Source: a virus
Lineage: Duplodnaviria; Heunggongvirae; Uroviricota; Caudoviricetes
Length of the DNA stretch: 49,854 nt
Virus record (IMG/VR): IMGVR_UViG_2529293239_000010
Strand: one strand, 5' to 3'
Position numbers and translations under genes: made by a program. The notes beneath the pieces are model-generated. The model did not search any database, was not told where the DNA came from, and saw only the letters and a list, made by a program, of their open reading frames with translations. Positions 1-47,835 of the stretch are shown here, one piece after another; positions within the stretch are counted from its first letter, which is position 1; each line of letters starts with the position of its first letter.

Positions 1-1131
1 TCAAATGACCAGTTTTTTCCATTCCTTACCGCGTGCGTCGTTGTAAATATCGGTCATTTTTTGATTCGAATGGCCTAGCAAAATTTTGGTATCAACCCCC
101 TGCTCTCTGAACAATCGCTCTGATAAAGATCTCTGCTCATGGAAAGAGGGAGGGGTGCCATTAGCACGCCAGTTGTAATCCACAGAATCCCGGGCTTTTT
201 TAAATGCAACGGTTAATGTTGCTGGCTTAACCATCCCGCCGCGCTTAGCTGTCCCTTTCGCGTGATGGTGGTGCAATAGCCACGGACTAAGAACGCAATC
301 GCGGCAGGATGACACCACATCATCCAGGGTGAGATTTAATTTATCGCAACGCAGAGCCAGAGGGATGGCAATCCGGGTTCCTGTTTTTTGCTGTTCGACA
401 TGAAGATAACCATCCCGGATATCCGAAAATTGCATTTTGCAAATATCTGAAAGGCGCTGGCCTGTCATCAGTGCCAGCAGCATACCGCGCTGTAAAAAGT
501 AACCATCCTTTTCCGCTGCGTTATAAATCATCATCCACTCATCAAAAGTCAGTCGCTGTCTTGATATCCGCACCTGCGGTTTTTTTGCCGATTCTGCAGG
601 GTTAAAGCCTGGCGGGACATCGCCCGTTTGCTGAGCTTCCCGGAAAACATCGATCAGTACTTTCCTGAAAATTTGTCCCATTCTGTTATGTCCTCTGGCC
701 TTGTACTCTTCCAGTACTGATACCACATCTTTTACGGTTATGGCATCTAACCGTCTGGTGCCAAAACGTTCATCAAATACCCTGAGAGGGGCCGCTTTCT
801 GTTTCAGCGTGTTGAGTTTGATCTCGCCGTTTTCATATCTTTCCTGTTGAATTTTTCTGTAATTATTCAGAAAAATGGTAACAGTTGATGAACCGCCGGT
901 ATCACTAATAATTTTCTCCTGCAGACTGAGCATTTGTTCCATTTGCTGCCGGGCAAGACGGCTGTTCGCTTCTGCTGCAATAGTTTCTGCCAGTTTCTGG
1001 TCAATACTGCCGAGACCGTGATTTTTGCCTGTTATGGGATGCCTGTAACGCCAGTAAACTTTGTTATTTCTTTTGTCAAAATACGGAGATAATCCCGGAA
1101 CATCGGTTTTATATTTTCGCGGGCGCGCCAT
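1..1131 (-). CDS. int: Phage integrase, tyrosine recombinase family
   Basis: 376-aa ORF with integrase-like N-terminus and C-terminal catalytic region (R...HxxR...Y context near LGHSNQKMTDIY); sits at the prophage edge next to an excisionase, as in lambdoid prophages. Its stop codon lies at window positions 1..3. Confidence 0.85.
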   Translation of the reverse strand: MARPRKYKTDVPGLSPYFDKRNNKVYWRYRHPITGKNHGLGSIDQKLAETIAAEANSRLARQQMEQMLSLQEKIISDTGGSSTVTIFLNNYRKIQQERYENGEIKLNTLKQKAAPLRVFDERFGTRRLDAITVKDVVSVLEEYKARGHNRMGQIFRKVLIDVFREAQQTGDVPPGFNPAESAKKPQVRISRQRLTFDEWMMIYNAAEKDGYFLQRGMLLALMTGQRLSDICKMQFSDIRDGYLHVEQQKTGTRIAIPLALRCDKLNLTLDDVVSSCRDCVLSPWLLHHHHAKGTAKRGGMVKPATLTVAFKKARDSVDYNWRANGTPPSFHEQRSLSERLFREQGVDTKILLGHSNQKMTDIYNDARGKEWKKLVI

Positions 1132-1357
1132 CTTCCAGTATCCTCTTCAAAGCAGGGTGATCTGTGGCGATCACCTCCGGCTTGTTTACCATTCCGACAA
1201 AGCGAGCTTGCGGATCCACTCGCCAGCGTCTTCCAACTTTTTTGGGGAGAGGAAATATCATTCCGGCTTTAGCGTATTTACTTAACGTACTCGGAGTAGG
1301 GACCGGTTCACTGAATTCCTCTTTTGCCCACTCAGTGAGCAGAATAAGTCTTGCCAT
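1109..1357 (-). CDS. xis: Excisionase-like small DNA-binding protein
   Basis: 82-aa ORF directly upstream of and overlapping int on the same strand; N-terminal LxLxEWAKEEF...TL.KYAKAG motif typical of lambdoid Xis proteins. Confidence 0.65.
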   Translation of the reverse strand: MARLILLTEWAKEEFSEPVPTPSTLSKYAKAGMIFPLPKKVGRRWRVDPQARFVGMVNKPEVIATDHPALKRILEDGAPAKI

Positions 1358-1421
1358 GAGCGTCGTTCGCTAATCATGGTCGCCGCCACTATAGCTGGTG
1401 GGCAACGACCGGGGTTGAACA

Positions 1422-3893
1422 TTAAAAATCAGCCTGATTCGGGATCAGTTTTTGCCAGATAACTGAAATGTATTTTGCCTGGTAACGGGCGTCATCAAGT
1501 GCATTATGGCGCTCACCTTCGAATGGAATAGCCGTTCTGGCATCGAAGTCTATGGCTTTCCCCAGCTCAACGATTGTGCGTACATCGCGATCGTTGTAGT
1601 AACGCCACGGGCAGGGGATCCCCTGCCGTTCGTATGAACGGCGCAAAATCGTGTTGTCGAAGTTGGCTCCATTTCCCCAGACCTGAACAAAAAATTCACC
1701 GGAGTTTTCGTCGATAAATTCCCGCAATTGTAACAGTGCATCATCTAACGGGATTTCATCGGTCATAATGGCAGACTGCGCTTCACGTGATTGCTTCAGC
1801 CACCTTTTAATGACGTCACGATCAATGACTCCGCCAGCAGTTTCCAGATCGATAGTCTTACTAAATTCCGGTCCCATATCTCCGGTTTGCGGATCGAAAA
1901 ATATTGCACCTATTGAGATAATCGGGGCATCAGGATTTTTTCCCATGGTTTCAAGGTCGATCATTAGATGGTCACACGTCCTGCTGGTGGATGTGATAAC
2001 GTGATGACCGTTCATCGCAATTAAGGGATCTGCCGTCTCGCCAGTTTCACTATCGCTGGCGTGATCCTGAGCGCTACCAGCATTCTCCTTGTGTGGATGT
2101 TCAGCGCCTTCCATTTCCTTCGGATCATTTTCCTGAACTTCAACCTGATTCTCTTCATCGAATGTTTCCTGGTATGTTGCGTCACCCATCACCGCGCCAC
2201 AATCAGGGCAGTTGCCGCCACCGCTTTGACCGCAGGCGGTGCAGACTTTTTCCGGTTCCTGTTGCGCTACTGGCTCAGGTTGTTTCGTTTCTGGCTCGTT
2301 TTGTTGCGTATTTGGGCTGTTTTGTTCCGCTTTCTGGTCGTTCTGTTCCGATTCTTGCTGGTTCTGGTTTACAGAATCGCGGGTTTCAATCCCCTTTACC
2401 CATTTCGGATCATTCGGGTCGCTAATCCCTGCAACAAATTCTCCGCGAGAGGCAGCAAGCAACTTATCGGCGTCAGGCTGGCTGATATTGGCTGCCTGCA
2501 TAATTTTGTTTACTTCGTCAGCGGTAACTTTTACCGGCTCTGGTTGTGCGGTCGTGTCAGATGCACCAGTATTTTGTTGTGAACCTGAGTACGTGCCGTT
2601 TTTACGTGCGAAGTATTCCTCTTTTGTGATTTCCGTAGCTCCCAAGGCTAGTGCTTTTTCCAGACCAGAAAGTTTGTTTGCGCGACCGTATTTTTCGCCA
2701 TCCTTGTCGGTGAAGAGGAAGTAGAACGGCCCCTCACGCTCTACAGATGGTTCGACTTCCACTTTGCATTCGGTTTTTTCGTTGCCCGGAATTGCCGTTT
2801 CCACTGCATCAGTTTCTGGTACTGGCGACGAGAGAGTATCAGTTGCGCTCTGATTTCTTCCTTCATCTTCAAACACGCCCTTTGTAGTCAGGTATTCAGT
2901 AATGTATTTGTTCAGTGCCACAGGGTCTTTGTGAATGTCGATCGGACGTTCACGGACAAGGCCAAAAATAGTCTGGCGGTCGTAGCGAAGGGCATCAGGC
3001 TGTTTGCGCATTGATGCCGAGATACGCTTCCAGTCTTCGCGGTCGTTGTCGATAACTTCATTTTTTGCCCAGCGATGGATGCTGCCGTCAATGTTTCCGG
3101 CATCCACATCACCAGGCCAGAGAGCGTAGGCCAGTTCGTCATCCAGTGTTTTCCATGTCTGCTTGTATTCGCGATGAATGGCAGCAATGACCGGGCTGAT
3201 TTTTCCTGTTGAATTTTCACTGTGCTGTTGATTGGTTCTGGCGCGGGCGAGATCAACAACAGACGTGTATTTTCCGGTTTCCTTGCGTTCACCTTCGCGA
3301 CGTTTTTTCCAGATGCGCATCTCTGCCTGAATTTCGGGCCATTTGGCACCAGGCTTACATTTATGCTTAACCCACCCGATGGCATGCAGCTTAAGCTCCG
3401 GATACATGGCGTTAACTTCTGGCATTTTCATCAACGCTTCAACGATATGTCCGTCGAATGTTGCCATGTCTTCCTGCAACAATTCCTGTGCGCTAATAAC
3501 CATATCAACGGTGATGTTTTCACATGTGTCGAACTTAACCATGACAGCGTTCTGTACTTCAGGGGCCAGCTTGTCAAAAGTGACGTTCATCGGATCTGAT
3601 TCAGTCTCAACCGGGACAAAGGAAGCAGACTCCTCATCCCAGCGGTTTTCCTGCATATATTCAGCATCCCAGGAATCGAGGGCAGGGCGGGGTATACCGG
3701 GTTTATCCTCGCAGACAAGAAATTTATAAGCGCAGTCCTGAGCAGCCGGATAATGTTCCAGGAATTGCCAGTGAAATTTTGCGCGGGCGCGACGTTCATC
3801 ACCGGCTTCAATGGCAGTGGCTACAGCGACGGCACCTTCTTCCTTTATTGCCTGTTCGTCCGGAATGGCGGCGCAAATAAAGACTTTACTCAT
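1422..3893 (-). CDS. Phage exonuclease, 823 aa, with C-terminal DEDDh (DnaQ-like) 3'-5' exonuclease domain and central CxxC...CxxC zinc ribbon
   Basis: C-terminal motifs DLETMG ... WGNGANFD ... HNALDDA fit the DEDDh exonuclease fold; CTACGQ...CPDCG zinc ribbon; Q/E/N-rich low-complexity linker encoded by imperfect tandem DNA repeats around 2240..2360. Confidence 0.8.
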   Translation of the reverse strand: MSKVFICAAIPDEQAIKEEGAVAVATAIEAGDERRARAKFHWQFLEHYPAAQDCAYKFLVCEDKPGIPRPALDSWDAEYMQENRWDEESASFVPVETESDPMNVTFDKLAPEVQNAVMVKFDTCENITVDMVISAQELLQEDMATFDGHIVEALMKMPEVNAMYPELKLHAIGWVKHKCKPGAKWPEIQAEMRIWKKRREGERKETGKYTSVVDLARARTNQQHSENSTGKISPVIAAIHREYKQTWKTLDDELAYALWPGDVDAGNIDGSIHRWAKNEVIDNDREDWKRISASMRKQPDALRYDRQTIFGLVRERPIDIHKDPVALNKYITEYLTTKGVFEDEGRNQSATDTLSSPVPETDAVETAIPGNEKTECKVEVEPSVEREGPFYFLFTDKDGEKYGRANKLSGLEKALALGATEITKEEYFARKNGTYSGSQQNTGASDTTAQPEPVKVTADEVNKIMQAANISQPDADKLLAASRGEFVAGISDPNDPKWVKGIETRDSVNQNQQESEQNDQKAEQNSPNTQQNEPETKQPEPVAQQEPEKVCTACGQSGGGNCPDCGAVMGDATYQETFDEENQVEVQENDPKEMEGAEHPHKENAGSAQDHASDSETGETADPLIAMNGHHVITSTSRTCDHLMIDLETMGKNPDAPIISIGAIFFDPQTGDMGPEFSKTIDLETAGGVIDRDVIKRWLKQSREAQSAIMTDEIPLDDALLQLREFIDENSGEFFVQVWGNGANFDNTILRRSYERQGIPCPWRYYNDRDVRTIVELGKAIDFDARTAIPFEGERHNALDDARYQAKYISVIWQKLIPNQADF

Positions 3894-3985
3894 TTTGTTT
3901 TACCTCATTACAGATTTAAGGGTGAACAAATCCCTGCCATTGCTGGCATATAAGAATGAAACCGGATATTTATTACGGAACTGTT

Positions 3986-4177
3986 TTAAAGACCTGCCGG
4001 GATTTCGTTATTATCCTGGTGAATAACTTTATCGACCGGGTAACAGTTACCGGGAATTTTCTGTTCGGTTGCTGCAGTCACACACTCCTGCATTGTCCTG
4101 TGAACACTGACTGCAATATCAACTGGCTCTCCGGAAACAAGAAAAACTGTCAGAACAAGTGCAAATGCTGTATTCAT
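3986..4177 (-). CDS. Small hydrophobic, signal-peptide-like protein of unknown function (about 63 aa)
   Basis: ORF with hydrophobic N-terminus (MNTAFALVLTVFLVSG); its ATG overlaps the stop of the upstream gene in an ATGA arrangement, suggesting translational coupling; AAGGA Shine-Dalgarno about 8 nt upstream. Confidence 0.35.
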   Translation of the reverse strand: MNTAFALVLTVFLVSGEPVDIAVSVHRTMQECVTAATEQKIPGNCYPVDKVIHQDNNEIPAGL

Positions 4178-4467
4178 TGCCAGCATCCTTTTTGTATCGG
4201 ACGTAAACGGGCCAGCATTGAAAGAATGCATATTTTATTTAATAGCTCCCGTTCGTGTTTTCTCTTGTTAATGGCATCTTCAGTAAATACAGGGTTACTG
4301 ATAGTGACACCAATTTCAAAACAACCTTCAGACGTATTAATGTTTGGTAATAACGTTTCCATTATCGCGTCCTCAACAATGAATTTTGTGATGCGGTGCC
4401 TGGTGCCTCCAGGTGACGTTAACCAGTTAACAATTAACGCCGGATACAGAGAATCCACCCATAACAC
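4174..4467 (-). CDS. Hypothetical protein in leftward early operon
   Basis: 97-aa ORF on the same strand as the early leftward genes; stop overlaps the start of the downstream small ORF. No recognisable motifs. Confidence 0.4.
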   Translation of the reverse strand: MLWVDSLYPALIVNWLTSPGGTRHRITKFIVEDAIMETLLPNINTSEGCFEIGVTISNPVFTEDAINKRKHERELLNKICILSMLARLRPIQKGCWQ

Positions 4468-4923
4468 TGTTTTTGGTTTTAACTGTTCCGCGTGCGCTCA
4501 GCCGCATTCACCACATCACAAAATTCACTTTAAAAAGGGCGGCAGAGCAGTCACGGAGTAAAACTGATACCGCCAAACGTCACCAGAAAATTGATAACAG
4601 AGGGCGTTGCAGCGGGGTTGTCACTTAAGCGTATGGTCAACCTGACAACTCGGTGTCCTCAACGGGGAAGGAATAACCCCGCCATACTTACCGCCGCGCC
4701 ATTTCGCGGATTGCCACAACCGGAAACGCACGGTCGACGAAAATTTAACGACAGGCTATCTATGAACCAGCTACCTCGCCGGGCGCTTTCGCGTTATGGT
4801 CTGACTTTTCAGGGAAATATCCTTTCAGTAAACTGTCAGTGCCGGATGCTCACCCGTGTCCGGCGCACGCACTCCACCTCACCCGTGGAGAACTCCTTAA
4901 TCACCAACCCTCAGGAGGGTGAA

Positions 4924-5199
4924 ATGTCGACTGAAAATGATGAAATCATTAACTCCCTGATACGCCAGATTAATAATTTTGATAAAGCATTGCAACATGC
5001 TGCGGCGCGTAGTGATATAACTCTTTTAGCAATTTCATTTCTTGCATCTGTTATGGATAAAAATGAAGTCGTACGACAGAGTCTTGTTGATTATATCGAC
5101 TCGCTTCAACCCGGCACTTTCAATCATGAGAGCTTCAATCATGAGAAAGAGCATGTTAAGTCTGTAATTAATTCTCTTATTTTGAATCAAAAGAATTAA
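4924..5199 (+). CDS. Hypothetical protein (about 91 aa) in AT-rich segment
   Basis: ATG at 4924 preceded by strong Shine-Dalgarno GGAGGGTGAA; the longer 202-aa ORF call upstream has no ribosome binding site. Convergent with, and overlapping, the 3' end of the minus-strand gene 5177..5509. Confidence 0.35.
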   Translation: MSTENDEIINSLIRQINNFDKALQHAAARSDITLLAISFLASVMDKNEVVRQSLVDYIDSLQPGTFNHESFNHEKEHVKSVINSLILNQKN

Positions 5200-5509
5200 T
5201 GCTTTTTGTTGCAAAGTAATTTTCAAGGGGTTCTATTCGAATCCCTTTCTTTTTCATTAACAAGCCAAACCCCTTATCAATGATGTCCATTAGATCCAGG
5301 AAGTATTTTTCATGTAAATCCTGGTTATCAGAGAGCTGCTTCTCTTCGTACAGCCCGATAAAGGCTCGGCGTACGTTACCGGATATATTGTCGATGGTTT
5401 CTTTTTCTACGGTACTCAGGTCAAGAGTCGCCAGTTGAGAGCGAACCACATTCGATGCCATTTCCTGGAATGGTACTGGTAAATCTTTAAATTCCATCGT
5501 CAACCTCAT
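5177..5509 (-). CDS. Hypothetical protein, second gene of PL-proximal operon
   Basis: 110-aa ORF whose start overlaps the stop of the upstream gene (5509); AT-rich; no recognisable family. Confidence 0.45.
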   Translation of the reverse strand: MRLTMEFKDLPVPFQEMASNVVRSQLATLDLSTVEKETIDNISGNVRRAFIGLYEEKQLSDNQDLHEKYFLDLMDIIDKGFGLLMKKKGIRIEPLENYFATKSINSFDSK

Positions 5510-5742
5510 CAGTCAGTGTTTCTGGTTAACCAGCGACGCGCGCCAGCTTCAGTTTTAAACGTTTTGCTTCTGGTATACGTCATCGCGGTGAACGTACCGT
5601 CCTGGTTGGGGAACACGCCACATACCAGAGATTCGCTGTTGCCAAGCTCGATAGTATCCATGCTGACCTCATTTCCCCTTAACGCCGGGGTAGCGGAACA
5701 AAAACCTGCTGCATAGTTATTAAAGTTGAACCCTGCCGTCAT
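5509..5742 (-). CDS. Hypothetical protein, first gene downstream of PL
   Basis: 77-aa ORF about 100 bp downstream of a strong leftward promoter; occupies the position of N in lambda but has no arginine-rich N-terminus. Confidence 0.45.
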   Translation of the reverse strand: MTAGFNFNNYAAGFCSATPALRGNEVSMDTIELGNSESLVCGVFPNQDGTFTAMTYTRSKTFKTEAGARRWLTRNTD

Positions 5743-5841
5743 GTTCTTACGCCTCGGGCTGGCTACTTAACCCCTGACCACTGCCTGGTAACTCGAGGTA
5801 TTGCCCTGTATTGTGTGGGACGGGATGGGTTGGTATGGGAA

Positions 5842-5870
5842 AACTATAGGAAATGCCTAATTACTTGTCA
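5842..5870 (-). promoter_or_regulatory. PL-like leftward early promoter with overlapping operator
   Basis: On the minus strand, TTGACA - 17 bp - TATAGT; overlaps the palindromic operator AATAGGCTATGCCTAAT (5869..5885) and further CCTAAT half-sites. Confidence 0.55.
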
Positions 5871-5979
5871 ATAGGCTATGCCTAATAATTTGGGCGCAAC
5901 CTAATAGGTGATGGTTTGTGGGAGAGGTAGTAGGAGTTAACTAACGGGAACTAGGAATTTCCCGTCGGACCATATAAGT

Positions 5980-6456
5980 TTAAGTTCCTGTCTTGGTGAT
6001 GTTCTGGCTTTTCCGTTTTGATTCTTGATTTTTCAGATAGTTAGCTACCTTCATTTCCATTGCGGCAATGTAGGCGCGAACGTCATAATCAACCCAACTA
6101 GGCTCCGTAGCATTTCCAGATAAGATGAAAGCCACAATTGCTTTTTTTTCATCAGAGGCGGCTTGATAAAGGCTGTTTATGTCTAAAAGTTCACTTTTTG
6201 TATCTGAAGTGGATGGGGTTGGTATGGGGTATTCGTTAAGCCCCCAATGCTCTGGACCAACCACATCAGAAAAGAAACGCCATAGTTCTGGAAGTTTGTC
6301 TTTACTTATCGAACCTTTCTTAATCCAGTCATGGATTGATGGTGGTTGGACTTTGAAATGACGTGCGATTTCCGCCTTTGATTTGACGGCTCCTGATGCA
6401 ATTTTTTTGTTAATGGCCTGCTCTATCGCTCGGCCTAAGTCTTTACCACTAAGCAT
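5980..6456 (-). CDS. Prophage repressor, RacR-like (HTH, no S24 peptidase domain)
   Basis: 158-aa ORF divergent from a cro-like gene and flanked on both sides by copies of the same palindromic operator; HTH-like segment KSKAEIARHFKVQPPSIHDWIKKG. Confidence 0.75.
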   Translation of the reverse strand: MLSGKDLGRAIEQAINKKIASGAVKSKAEIARHFKVQPPSIHDWIKKGSISKDKLPELWRFFSDVVGPEHWGLNEYPIPTPSTSDTKSELLDINSLYQAASDEKKAIVAFILSGNATEPSWVDYDVRAYIAAMEMKVANYLKNQESKRKSQNITKTGT

Positions 6457-6508
6457 TGCTTAATAGTCTCCTATGCGCATCGCGTTAGGCAATCCCTACT
6501 CTCGATGT

Positions 6509-6553
6509 ATTAGGCATAGCCTATTGACAATTTCATTAGGCTAAGCCTAATAT
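6509..6553 (+). promoter_or_regulatory. OR operators with PR-like rightward promoter
   Basis: TTGACA (6525..6530) - 17 bp - TAATAT (6548..6553); operator palindromes ATTAGGCATAGCCTATT (6509..6525) and ATTAGGCTAAGCCTAAT (6535..6551) overlap -35 and -10; a third partial site lies near 6483..6499. Confidence 0.6.
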
Positions 6554-6580
6554 TGTTGCGTGTTTTTTGGAGTTCATTCG

Positions 6581-6904
6581 ATGAAAAAAGATAACTATTC
6601 ATTCAAACGAGCTTGTGCTGTTGTCGGTGGGCAATCAGCAATGGCTAGGCTTTTAGGTGTATCTCCTCCAAGCGTAAATCAATGGATCAAAGGTGTACGT
6701 CAGTTACCTGCTGAGAGATGTCCTGCGATTGAACGAGCAACAAAAGGTGGTGTCCTGTGTGAAGAACTTCGTCCTGATGTTGATTGGACATACTTACGAC
6801 GCTCGTCATGTTATTCGCAGAATATGTCGATGAAGCAACCAAATGACGAAAACGATCATACCCGAAGCATCAAGAGGCAAATGATTCATGAAAATCAAAC
6901 ATGA
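6581..6904 (+). CDS. Cro/YdaS-like HTH regulator
   Basis: Starts at ATG 6581 after GGAG; HTH segment QSAMARLLGVSPPSVNQWIKG; divergent from the repressor across the operator region. Confidence 0.65.
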   Translation: MKKDNYSFKRACAVVGGQSAMARLLGVSPPSVNQWIKGVRQLPAERCPAIERATKGGVLCEELRPDVDWTYLRRSSCYSQNMSMKQPNDENDHTRSIKRQMIHENQT

Positions 6905-7313
6905 GCACATCCGCATGGCGATGAATGCCTGGGCATACCCTGATGGTGAGAAAGTTCCTGCAGCTGAAATAGCCCGGACTTATTTCGAACTGGGGATGAC
7001 GTTCCCTGAACTGTACGACGACAGCCATCCGGAAGCCCTGGCCCGTAATACCCAGAAAATTTTCCGTTGGCTGGATAAAGACCCCCCTGATGCTGTTGAA
7101 AAAATGCAGGCTCTGTTACCGGCGATCGAAAAGGCGATGCCGCCTTTGCTGGTGGCCCGTATGCGCAGCCACAGTTCTGAATATTACCGTGAGATCGTCG
7201 AACGGAGGGATCGGCTGGTGAAGGATGTCGATGATTTTGTTGCGTCAGCGGTTGTTTTGTATGACCAGATGAATCGCGGCGGCCCGGCAGGGAATGCTGT
7301 GGTGATGCACTAA
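6888..7313 (+). CDS. YdaT-like protein (Rac-type immunity region partner)
   Basis: 141-aa ORF immediately after the cro-like gene, starting MKIKHEHIRMAMN; size and position match ydaT of the Rac racR-ydaS-ydaT locus. Confidence 0.55.
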   Translation: MKIKHEHIRMAMNAWAYPDGEKVPAAEIARTYFELGMTFPELYDDSHPEALARNTQKIFRWLDKDPPDAVEKMQALLPAIEKAMPPLLVARMRSHSSEYYREIVERRDRLVKDVDDFVASAVVLYDQMNRGGPAGNAVVMH

Positions 7314-7335
7314 AAGCACGGTGTTCGGGGGTTTT

Positions 7336-8298
7336 ATGAGCAGCAAGCTTCATGGTCTTGTCTGGGAAGGGTGCGCCTTCACCGGCATGATCTTATCCAG
7401 GGTGGCGGTTATGGCCCGTCTTGCAGACTACAGCAATGACGAGGGCGTGTCATGGCCTGCCATTGAAACTATCCGGCGTCAGATCGGTGCAAGAAGTGAA
7501 TCCACAGTGAAATCGGCTATTGCAGAACTGGCGAAAGAGGGCTGGCTGACGAAGGAAGAGCGTAAGGTCGGTGGGCGTAATGTAAGCAATATCTATCGGC
7601 TTAATGTGGAAAAACTCGAAGCAGCTGCGGCGGCGGCGCGTGAGTCATATAAACCGAAAAGAAAAATTAGCCCGGCAAAAAATGACCCGTTAACAGTTGA
7701 CCCGTCAAATATTGACCCCTCAACGGTTGACCCGTCAAATTTTGATGGATCAACTGTTGATAAAAAACTGCCGATTAGGGGGGCGATGATTGACCCCGAT
7801 CCGTCAGTATTAAAACCTGATCCGTCAGATAAAAGATCTTCTTGTCCGGACGCTTCGCAACCGGACCCGCAGACGGCTGAACAGGATTTTTTAACCCGAC
7901 ACCCTGACGCGGTTGTGTTCAGTGCGAAAAAACGCCAGTGGGGAAGTCAGGAAGATTTGGTGTGCGCACAGTGGATCTGGGGACGAATCGTGAGTCTTTA
8001 CGAGCAGGCGGCCAGCTATGATGGCGAGATCACTAGACCGAAAGAACCCAACTGGACAGCATGGGCCAATGACGTTCGCACAATGCGGATGCTGGATGGC
8101 AGAACTCACAGACAAATTTGTGAAATGTTTGGGCGTCTCCAGCGGGATTCGTTCTGGGTAAAAAACATCATGAGTCCGGCAAAACTCCGGGAAAAATGGG
8201 ATGAACTGGTTATCCGCCTGGGGCGTTCGCCTGCGCAGCGTTGTGTGAATCACATTTCTGAACCGGACACTGAAATACCGCCGGGATTCAGGGGGTGA
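7336..8298 (+). CDS. Replication initiation protein (lambda O-like role) with internal iterons
   Basis: N-terminal winged-helix-like region; gene contains five 15-bp iteron-like repeats that encode DPSNIDPSTVDPSNFD; followed directly by a DnaC-like gene. Confidence 0.7.
   Translation: MSSKLHGLVWEGCAFTGMILSRVAVMARLADYSNDEGVSWPAIETIRRQIGARSESTVKSAIAELAKEGWLTKEERKVGGRNVSNIYRLNVEKLEAAAAAARESYKPKRKISPAKNDPLTVDPSNIDPSTVDPSNFDGSTVDKKLPIRGAMIDPDPSVLKPDPSDKRSSCPDASQPDPQTAEQDFLTRHPDAVVFSAKKRQWGSQEDLVCAQWIWGRIVSLYEQAASYDGEITRPKEPNWTAWANDVRTMRMLDGRTHRQICEMFGRLQRDSFWVKNIMSPAKLREKWDELVIRLGRSPAQRCVNHISEPDTEIPPGFRG
7682..7760. repeat. Iteron array, probable phage replication origin
   Basis: Five tandem 15-bp repeats, consensus TTGACCCGTCAANNN, embedded in the replication initiator gene, as lambda ori lies within O. 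Confidence 0.55.
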
Positions 8299-8304
8299 CG
8301 TGTC

Positions 8305-21405: not shown

Positions 21406-21732
21406 ATGACTAAAAATACTCGTTTTTCCCCCGAAGTCCGTCAGAGGGCGATTCGTATGGTTCTGGAAAGTCAGGGCGAATATGACTCACAGTGGGCGGC
21501 AATTTGTTCCATTGCCCCAAAGATTGGCTGTACACCGGAGACTCTGCGTGTCTGGGTACGCCAGCATGAGCGGGATACCGGAGGCGGTGATGGCGGGCTC
21601 ACCACCGCTGAACGTCAGCGTCTGAAAGAGCTGGAACGTGAAAATCGTGAACTGCGCCGCAGTAACGATATCCTTCGCCAGGCTTCCGCTTATTTTGCGA
21701 AGGCGGAGTTCGACCGCCTCTGGAAAAAGTGA
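21406..21732 (+). CDS. IS629 transposase OrfA (HTH)
   Basis: 108-aa [24 protein letters not shown]... with leucine-zipper-like C-terminus, typical IS3-family OrfA. Confidence 0.85.
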
Positions 21733-22619
21733 TGCCACTGCTGGATAAGCTGCGTAAGCTGTACGGGGTCGGACCGGTATGCAGTGAACTACATATTGCC
21801 CCGTCAACGTATTACCACTGTCAGCAACAGCGACATCATCCTGATAAACGCAGTGCCCGTGCGCAGCGCGATGACTGGCTGAAGAAAGAGATACTGCGCG
21901 TATACGATGGGAATCATCAGGTATACGGTGTGCGTAAAGTCTGGCGTCAGTTGTTACGGGAAGGTATCAGAGTGGCCAGATGCACTGTGGCACGTCTCAT
22001 GGCGGTTATGGGACTTGCCGGTGTTCTCCGGGGTAAAAAGGTCCGTACGACCATCAGCCGGAAAGCCGTTGCCGCAGGCGACCGCGTAAACCGTCAGTTC
22101 GTGGCAGAACGACCTGACCAGCTGTGGGTGGCTGATTTTACTTACGTCAGCACATGGCAGGGCTTCGTCTATGTGGCGTTCATTATTGATGTGTTTGCCG
22201 GATACATCGTGGGGTGGCGGGTCTCATCGTCCATGGAAACGACATTCGTGCTGGATGCTCTGGAGCAGGCGTTATGGGCCCGTCGACCGTCCGGCACGGT
22301 CCATCACAGTGATAAAGGTTCTCAGTATGTATCGCTGGCCTACACACAGCGGCTTAAGGAAGCCGGATTACTGGCATCAACAGGAAGTACAGGCGACTCG
22401 TATGACAACGCGATGGCGGAGAGCATCAATGGTCTTTACAAAGCGGAGGTAATACACCGTAAGAGCTGGAAAAACCGTGCAGAAGTGGAACTGGCCACAC
22501 TCACGTGGGTGGACTGGTATAATAATCGACGATTGCTGGAAAGGCTGGGCCACATCCCTCCGGCAGAAGCAGAAAAAGCTTATTATGCTTCCATCGGAAA
22601 CGATGATCTGGCAGCCTGA
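21729..22619 (+). CDS. IS629 transposase OrfB (DDE catalytic domain), normally made as an OrfAB fusion by -1 frameshift
   Basis: 296-aa ORF overlapping orfA in the -1 frame; DDE integrase-core region (WVADFTYV..., HSDKGSQY..., [10 protein letters not shown]). Confidence 0.85.
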
Positions 22620-47251: not shown

Positions 47252-47835
47252 TGGCATTCAGAATGAGTGAACAACCACGGACCATAAAAATTTATAATCT
47301 GCTGGCCGGAACTAATGAATTTATTGGTGAAGGTGATGCATATATTCCGCCTCATACAGGTCTGCCAGCAAACAGTACCGATATTGCACCGCCAGATATT
47401 CCGGCAGGCTTCGTGGCTGTTTTCAACAGTGATGAGGCATCGTGGCATCTCGTTGAAGACCATCGGGGTAAAACGGTTTATGACGTAGCGTCAGGGGACG
47501 CGTTATTTATTTCTGAACTCGGTCCGTTACCGGAAAATGTTACCTGGTTATCGCCGGAAGGGGAGTTTCAGAAGTGGAACGGCACAGCCTGGGTGAAAGA
47601 TGCAGAAGCAGAAAAACTGTTCCGGATCCGGGAGGCGGAAGAAACAAAAAACAGCCTGATGCAGGTAGCCAGTGAGCATATTGCGCCACTTCAGGATGCT
47701 GTAGATCTGGAAATCGCAACGGAGGAAGAAACCTCATTGCTGGAAGCCTGGAAAAAATATCGGGTGTTGCTGAACCGTGTTGATACATCAACTGCACCTG
47801 ATATTGAGTGGCCTACGAACCCTGTCAGGGAGTAA
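47251..47835 (+). CDS. tfa: Tail fibre assembly protein Tfa
   Basis: 194 aa starting [54 protein letters not shown], lambda Tfa. Confidence 0.9.

Follow-up and report, generated by a model that had tools for sequence, protein, structure and literature searches.

A Rac-type immunity region in a mosaic lambdoid prophage, with predicted operators on both sides of racR

In a 49,854-nucleotide stretch of DNA from a Caudoviricetes virus (IMG/VR record IMGVR_UViG_2529293239_000010; hereafter, the window), a gene for a 158-residue repressor lies between copies of one short palindrome. This raises the question of whether these copies are the operators of an immunity switch such as the one that the Rac prophage carries in Escherichia coli K-12 and, if so, what they add to a system that has already been studied. 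An original prediction, made from the letters of the sequence, had proposed a switch of the Rac type, and this reading was supported: the repressor and the divergently encoded YdaS protein are 90% and 85% identical to RacR and YdaS of K-12, respectively, and the predicted right-hand operators occupy the positions footprinted in K-12. The region is, with high confidence, the immunity region of a lambdoid prophage featuring the Rac immunity type. What the analysis itself shows is where the sites lie, how they are arranged, that they exceed chance and are conserved, and which three proteins are encoded. The predicted operators and promoter to the left of the repressor gene (OL and PL) are the only increment over the Rac literature searched.

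Palindromes and divergent promoters around racR

The palindrome TAGGCNNNGCCTA (TAGGC-N3-GCCTA), with one mismatch at most, was found five times in the whole window, namely twice to the left of racR (5847-5859 and 5872-5884) and three times to its right (6486-6498, 6511-6523, and 6537-6549). All five copies are confined to the two intergenic regions on either side of the 158-residue open reading frame (ORF) at 5980-6456 on the minus strand. Dinucleotide shuffles (n = 100) contained 1.06 such palindromes on average and four at most, five being reached in 0 of 100. Two additional copies carry two mismatches each (6450-6462 and 5891-5903). Hence, the proposed bracketing of the repressor gene by a single palindrome holds on both sides, with the correction that the right-hand side carries four sites and not merely flanking copies; their successive distances are 26, 25, and 36 bp, the site over the start codon included. 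The features of the region, with L and R denoting the leftward and rightward side, are as follows.

5843..5848, minus strand: PL -10 hexamer TATAGT, identical in K-12 Rac and in phage vB_EcoS-683R6
5847..5859: OL1, TAGGAAATGCCTA, one mismatch, overlapping the PL -10 by 2 bp; in 16 related loci, a counterpart lies at the same 25-bp distance from OL2
5866..5871, minus strand: PL -35 hexamer TTGACA, 17-bp spacer; every Enterobacterales relative with an OL pair has TTGA right next to the operator
5872..5884: OL2, TAGGCTATGCCTA, perfect, adjoining the PL -35, within the 23-bp mirror copy of the OR2/PR -35 region
5891..5903: possible weak OL3, TGGGCGCAACCTA, two mismatches, 19-bp spacing, a weakly evidenced candidate
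5980..6456, minus strand: racR, 158 residues, with a predicted N-terminal helix-turn-helix domain, a linker, and a helical C-terminal domain, without an S24 peptidase domain
6450..6462: operator spanning the start codon of racR, TAAGCATTGCTTA, two mismatches, corresponding to O3 of PMC9638921
6486..6498: OR3, TAGGCAATCCCTA, one mismatch, in the racR promoter region, identical in K-12
6511..6523: OR2, TAGGCATAGCCTA, perfect, adjoining the PR -35
6524..6529, plus strand: PR (PydaST) -35 hexamer TTGACA, a sigma-70 match
6537..6549: OR1, TAGGCTAAGCCTA, perfect, between the PR -35 and -10, overlapping the -10 by 2 bp
6548..6553, plus strand: PR -10 hexamer TAATAT, 18-bp spacer

From centre to centre, neighbouring palindromes are 25, 25, and 26 bp apart. 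On both sides of the gene, one operator adjoins the -35 hexamer, and the next one shares 2 bp with the -10 hexamer. Furthermore, a perfect 23-bp inverted repeat (5865-5887 and 6508-6530) connects the two sides, meaning that the PL -35 with its adjacent operator is identical to the PR -35 with its adjacent operator.

In a scan for sigma-70 promoters, PL and PR reached 11 and 10 of 12 consensus positions, respectively, and were the two top matches in window positions 1-16000, all others scoring 9 of 12. The hexamers, spacer, and strand proposed for PL were thereby confirmed (TTGACA-17-TATAGT on the minus strand). For PR, the proposed hexamers and the plus strand stood, the spacer being 18 bp instead of the 17 bp originally given; the 18-bp spacing is also stated in PMC11879457. 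For K-12, primer extension and mutagenesis located the ydaS promoter, with TAATAT as its -10 hexamer (PMC9638921).

A third left operator at 5891-5903 is possible, judging by its letters. No counterpart was found outside Escherichia among the related loci described below, and K-12 has more than two mismatches at that position. A second small palindrome, ACCTAATAGGT, with 1 bp between its half-sites, is located at 5899-5909 just upstream of the PL -35 and OL2, and is identical in K-12 Rac.

The repressor, the conservation of its sites, and the predicted switch

The repressor aligned with K-12 RacR (b1356) over its full length without gaps, 142 out of 158 residues being identical, and RefSeq annotates the gene as racR. 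By this measure, the protein is not merely Rac-like, but RacR itself. A 2-kb query around racR matched 4,387 of 5,426 complete E. coli genomes and was covered to at least 80% in 529 of them. Furthermore, strain 2017C-4173W12 contains a near-identical lambdoid prophage of full length, which is integrated at ompW and has Q, lysis, head, and tail genes, indicating Rac immunity in a mosaic prophage and not Rac itself.

In the AlphaFold model of RacR (mean predicted local distance difference test score of 78.8), residues 4-71 make up an N-terminal domain of five helices (4-21, 27-33, 38-47, 55-61, and 68-71), residues 80-87 are a disordered linker, and residues 86-153 form a second helical domain at the C-terminal end. 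Nearly all Foldseek matches of this model, weak as they are, were N-terminal domains of XRE proteins or of the lambda repressor cI (1lli, 1rio, 1lmb, ClgR, and HipB), and the N-terminal part may be a DNA-binding domain of the lambda repressor type. A Peptidase S24 domain was absent from RacR in the Pfam search (E up to 0.01); since the same search detected PF00717 in beta-proteobacterial relatives sharing the N-terminal domain, an S24 domain in RacR would have become apparent. RacR would thus act like cI at the DNA and stands outside the self-cleaving cI/LexA family. An SOS-controlled antirepressor was considered as the route of RacR induction and dropped, the LexA-box-like matches in the window having two mismatches and lying mostly inside structural and methylase genes. 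Upstream of the ash and Rha genes of the near-identical 2017C-4173W12 prophage, no CTGT-N8-ACAG box was seen by eye.

Rho-dependent termination within racR has been documented in K-12, where it guards against the expression of kil (PMC4150792). Just past the racR stop codon, a stem-loop (5945-5966, 7-bp stem, 8-nucleotide loop, ACGGGAA...TTCCCGT) is not followed by a T-run, and is kept in K-12 via a compensatory change from G-C to A-T. The published Rho-dependent terminator trac is nearby, and this hairpin possibly serves as a 3' end or stability element of the racR transcript.

Alignment of the window with K-12 revealed that the operator half-sites are unchanged base for base, the substitutions being located in the N3 spacers (TAA/GTC, ATA/ACA, and AAT/TAA) and in the DNA between the operators. 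To extend the comparison, 27 loci from species-representative genomes, each encoding a repressor with the RacR N-terminal domain, were analyzed, 24 non-redundant ones being used together with the window for counting sites. In total, 84 palindromes were found in 123 kb, all of them at fixed offsets upstream of the repressor gene or downstream of it. The upstream offsets from the repressor start codon are 54, 29, and -6 bp (81, 55, 30, and -6 bp in Escherichia), and at position -6 the form TAGGC-N3-GCTTA occurs in 21 of 23 loci of the family outside Escherichia. The downstream sites are nearly all pairs spaced by 25 bp, the first site being directly followed by TTGA in Enterobacterales. Such an OL pair was detected in 16 of the 27 related loci and additionally in K-12 and the Rac-like phage vB_EcoS-683R6. 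Its 25-bp spacing and its contact with the TTGACA -35 and the -10 are kept in Escherichia, Mixta, Morganella, Proteus, and Erwinia, and in beta-proteobacterial relatives the pair is situated 0.07-1.9 kb downstream amid unrelated surrounding DNA. The extended consensus derived from these loci, aTTAGGC-N3-GCCTAAt, is close to the one first proposed. Accordingly, the palindromes are present in the orthologous immunity regions of K-12, phage vB_EcoS-683R6, and the related loci, their absence from such regions having been named beforehand as a finding that would speak against the proposal.

Several observations accompany this comparison. Rac-type regions of Escherichia have four sites at or upstream of racR, and three were counted in Mixta, Morganella, Proteus, Erwinia, and others (L008-L013 compared); Escherichia thus has one extra operator unit of 26 bp, which places PR one unit further out. 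Eight loci (L014, L016, L017, L020, L022-L024, and L026, with repressor genes starting at 2501 or 1385) encode a fusion of the RacR N-terminal DNA-binding domain (53-78% identity) with Peptidase_S24. These relatives come from beta-proteobacteria and other non-enteric bacteria, Achromobacter, Pigmentiphaga, and Azoarcus among them, and several of them keep TAGGC-N3-GCCTA at matching offsets. From these sequences, the RacR-type DNA-binding domain and its operator set appear to move as a unit, irrespective of the C-terminal domain. Two of the loci look like metagenome binning contamination: L006, a contig binned as 'Candidatus Nanosynbacter' with an E. coli-type racR region whose operators are identical to those of K-12, and L021, a scaffold binned as 'Alistipes senegalensis' with a RacR-domain repressor.

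For K-12 Rac, the right-hand region is well characterized. Krishnamurthi et al. (2017) described three variant GCCTAA/TTAGGC repeats in the 123-bp racR-ydaS intergenic region, and their electrophoretic mobility shift assays yielded three RacR-DNA complexes on the full region and one on a 49-bp fragment with a single repeat; enrichment in chromatin immunoprecipitation and repression of a gfp reporter were also reported (PMC5700373). In a study published in Nucleic Acids Res. in 2022, transcription starts were mapped and a RacR DNase I footprint was obtained, resulting in the consensus T/A-TAGGC-n3-GCCTA-T/A; protection began with OR1 at the ydaS promoter, for which the lowest RacR concentration sufficed, and took in the racR promoter region (OR3) at higher concentrations, with one operator lying over the racR ATG (PMC9638921). 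Four inverted repeats and a RacR octamer, determined by size exclusion, were reported subsequently (PMC11014345). The binding assays, footprinting, reporter fusions, and repressor deletion proposed with the original prediction have thus already been published for the K-12 right operator (2017-2025).

Taken together, the following switch is predicted. RacR dimers would bind the 13-bp palindromes TAGGC-N3-GCCTA. By occupying OR1 and OR2, they would cover PR, a strong promoter from which ydaS, ydaT, and the replication genes are presumably transcribed, at both its -10 and its -35, and by occupying OR3 and the site over the racR ATG, both in the promoter region of racR, they would exert autoregulation. 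OL1 and OL2, 25 bp apart and in mirror-image geometry, would cover the -10 and -35 of PL and silence the genes for DUF1391, DicF/DicB, the exonuclease, xis, and int. Loss of RacR would set PR and PL free; YdaS would compete for the operators, favouring excision and lytic development, and YdaT, bound to the YdaT-box where ydaT begins, would increase leftward transcription of racR in the manner of CII at PRE.

A number of points weigh against this interpretation. The experimental RacR data originate from the K-12 allele, from which we infer the behaviour of the 90%-identical allele of the window. YdaS of K-12 does not repress racR as Cro represses cI, which leaves the analogy with lambda incomplete (PMC9638921). 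OL1 and OR3 have one mismatch each and the start-codon site has two. RacR matched no family in Pfam (E up to 0.01), PHROG, or the PDB sequences, and the structural matches of its model to lambda cI and XRE domains are weak (best E 0.09). Finally, the search of the Rac literature found no description of RacR binding at OL, of a PL transcription start, or of a Rac OL/PL or sbcA operator; the older kil/sbcA papers, which were beyond the reach of this search, may contain an earlier description.

The predicted left operator

Among the alternatives, the one that survives best concerns the left-hand side. OL and PL could represent a non-functional relic or a chance duplicate, with the RacR octamer acting only on the four right-hand sites. 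All published binding data indeed come from the right intergenic region, with the octamer read as a set of four dimers occupying the four right-hand repeats and looping nowhere mentioned (PMC11014345). However, the retention of pair spacing and of contact with the -35 and -10 in five enteric genera, the persistence of the pair in beta-proteobacteria amid unrelated DNA, and the retention of half-sites while the N3 spacers vary all speak against a relic, as does the response of the leftward genes to RacR depletion: under RacR-silencing conditions, ydaG, ydaF, kilR, ydaE, and racC were up 40-70 fold (PMC11014345). We therefore regard a relic as improbable.

Based on its conservation, the Rac-type OL/PL pair is well supported. 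That RacR controls it is what we infer: a RacR-controlled PL predicts, and would explain, the rise of the leftward genes on RacR silencing, and since PaaR2, the unrelated CP-933P repressor, has been shown to have a PL/OL counterpart, an OL/PL of the Rac type is to be expected. A more far-reaching proposal may be put forward tentatively, and we would sooner doubt it than believe it: OL1 and OL2 with PL would form a working RacR operator, paired through the octamer with the four OR sites by a loop of approx. 640 bp around racR, and the RacR DNA-binding domain with its TAGGC-N3-GCCTA set would be a portable module, found from Enterobacterales to Burkholderiales with a C-terminal half that is either helical or S24. 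If true, the octamer would bridge OL and OR, unlike the published view of four dimers on the right side, and would be open to another reading. Rac studies to date were confined to the racR-ydaS intergenic region, and the conserved OL/PL provides one useful lead. Beyond annotation, the significance of the locus is small, the promoters and operators of a well-studied immunity type being legible from the sequence.

The early operons and comparison with known systems

As had been claimed, the rightward operon opens with YdaS-like and YdaT-like genes in the arrangement of racR-ydaS-ydaT:

6581..6904, plus strand: ydaS, Cro analogue, 107 residues; Pfam YdaS_toxin (PF15943) 3.8e-30, P22_Cro 1e-08, also HTH_3
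6881..6898: YdaT-box, ATGATT-N6-AATCAA, across the ydaT start codon, one mismatch to TTGATT-N6-AATCAA
6888..7313, plus strand: ydaT, CII analogue, 141 residues; Pfam YdaT_toxin (PF06254) 2.1e-09, PHROG CII-like activator 3.6e-46

The YdaT protein of the window shares a mere 30% identity with K-12 YdaT and matched the YdaT_toxin-domain chain of PDB entry 8bt1 with an E value of 2.5e-88. We take this entry, whose source is not named in the output of the PDB search, to be the YdaT of prophage CP-933P. Going by its sequence, the ydaT gene is an allele of the CP-933P type rather than the K-12 type. CP-933P YdaT is a characterized DNA-binding protein (PMC9986795), and YdaT has been described as a CII analogue working through the YdaT-box, the box of the window being the reference repeat ATGATT-n6-AATCAA of that study (PMC11879457). 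Further downstream, a DnaC-like replication gene (IstB_IS21 ATPase, 8305-9047, plus strand) has a 4-bp deletion (TTTT, at 8772-8773) relative to the otherwise identical gene of 2017C-4173W12, which splits it into ORFs 8305-8817 and 8796-9047. Either the prophage is replication-defective or the deletion is a homopolymer sequencing error.

The Pfam names YdaS_toxin and YdaT_toxin suggest another interpretation, in which the locus would be a toxin-repressor module or an atypical toxin-antitoxin one, with RacR serving only to silence the toxins YdaS and YdaT and without any switch between lysis and lysogeny. It is also favoured by the K-12 findings that racR is deletable only along with ydaS and the intergenic region and that ectopic expression of YdaS/YdaT is toxic (PMC5700373). 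YdaS, however, also matches P22_Cro and HTH_3, and YdaT matches a CII-like activator and 8bt1, the CP-933P protein binding DNA (PMC9986795). The genes occupy the cro/cII position ahead of the replication genes in a full-length prophage, and the same operators also flank PL of the recombination, excision, and integration genes. Moreover, YdaS and YdaT of K-12 and CP-933P were reported to bind operator and YdaT-box DNA and, at levels that are not toxic, to exert control over PR, PRM, and PRE-like promoters, and the toxin view is disputed in print (PMC5917428, PMC11879457), Jobling (2018) describing YdaS and YdaT as Cro and CII analogues and not as toxins (PMC5917428). A module of this kind is therefore very unlikely.

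Just as unlikely is an assignment of the palindromes primarily to YdaS as Cro-type sites, with RacR reading something else nearby. One paper states that YdaS and RacR compete for shared operators (PMC11014345), and which protein reads a palindrome is not decidable from the sequence alone. On the other hand, the single-repeat K-12 fragment gave one RacR complex and the full region three (PMC5700373), the RacR footprints coincide with the repeats (PMC9638921), and the palindrome tracks the RacR N-terminal domain across the related loci, which were collected by this domain. A type II toxin-antitoxin system is suggested by the Pfam names alone, and the literature argues against it (PMC11879457, PMC5917428).

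A Rac-type immunity switch remains the preferred explanation. The first gene of the leftward operon is the following:

5509..5742, minus strand: DUF1391, YdaF-like, first leftward ORF, not an N protein

From PL, the order is DUF1391, a 110-residue protein of unknown function, the DicF small RNA (4537-4588, minus strand, Rfam 76.7 bits), dicB (4174-4467, minus strand), DUF1482, exonuclease, xis, and int. A Qin-like dicBF cell-division-inhibitor module accordingly lies under a Rac-type PL where K-12 Rac has kilR. On the opposite strand within this operon, a 91-residue ORF (4924-5199, plus strand), hypothetical in RefSeq, occupies the sieB position of K-12 Rac and has its own promoter-like (4949-4977) and terminator-like (5225-5247) signals.

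The claim that this operon is devoid of a recognizable N protein and boxA was upheld. No N-family match was obtained among the scanned leftward ORFs, including DUF1391 and the 110-residue protein (Pfam, PHROGs). No exact copy of boxA (CGCTCTTA) is present in the window, and one-mismatch copies are below chance (22 vs. 29 expected). The PL leader (188 nucleotides, 5837-5650, minus strand) folds no better than its shuffles (z +1.34), and a put-like or nut-like RNA in it was rejected on this value and on the lack of an Rfam match there; between 4400 and 7400, Rfam (E up to 1) returned DicF and a weak STnc100 fragment only. The overlap of ydaS and ydaT leaves no space for a nutR/tR1 interval. As far as the sequence indicates, early antitermination differing from that of lambda holds as a consistent view, and K-12 Rac and the Rac-like phage have an equally N-less layout. 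Divergent nut-like or put-like elements, or an antitermination device not recognizable in the sequence, may still be present. RNA elements found elsewhere in the window (11188-11363, 15884-16130, 16209-16886, 21687-21803, and 47594-47792) comprise sok beside hokD, three tRNA genes, two STnc100 elements, an ALIL pseudoknot (insertion sequence remnant), and IS009.

Features shared with lambda are divergent PR and repressor promoters, several palindromic operators approx. 24-26 bp apart that cover the -35 and -10, another set of operators beyond the repressor gene, at PL, and a CII-type activator. To these, reports on K-12 RacR add a repressor that forms octamers and is encoded on a leaderless transcript. 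The distance between OL and OR is approx. 640 bp in the window, unlike in lambda, where it is approx. 2.4 kb. Further differences from lambda are the lack of the S24 self-cleavage domain in RacR, the absence of a detectable N gene or nut sites in the window, the four right-hand sites with one over the start codon, and the failure of K-12 YdaS to repress racR (PMC9638921).

The paaR2/ydaS/ydaT region of CP-933P (O157:H7 EDL933) resembles that of the window in having a repressor gene with divergent ydaS-ydaT, an OR together with a described PL/OL, and an octameric repressor (PMC8630535), and also in a YdaT-box of the same form and in the match of the window YdaT to 8bt1. It differs in its repressor, PaaR2, which reads another repeat (consensus GTTTAGTAA) and is co-transcribed with the paaA2-parE2 toxin-antitoxin pair absent from the window (PMC8630535).

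The closest system is K-12 Rac (b1356-b1358), with a repressor of the same length and 90% identity, a YdaS of 85% identity, half-sites at the same positions, PR (TTGACA-18-TAATAT), PL (TTGACA-17-TATAGT), and the site over the racR ATG. It differs in its YdaT (just 30% identical), in the DNA between the operators and in their N3 spacers, the -10 boxes described for PracR2 and PracR3 (PMC9638921) being among the differences, and in carrying kilR, ydaE, and racC in place of DicF and DicB in the leftward operon. Moreover, Rac resides at ttcA, and the near-identical 2017C-4173W12 prophage is full length at ompW. In the prophage of the window, Rac immunity occurs together with a YdaT of the CP-933P type and a dicF-dicB module resembling that of Qin. 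The reading as a Rac-type switch is correct, the system is already known and characterized in K-12, and the present copy, located in a mosaic prophage, is an allele with 90% identity.

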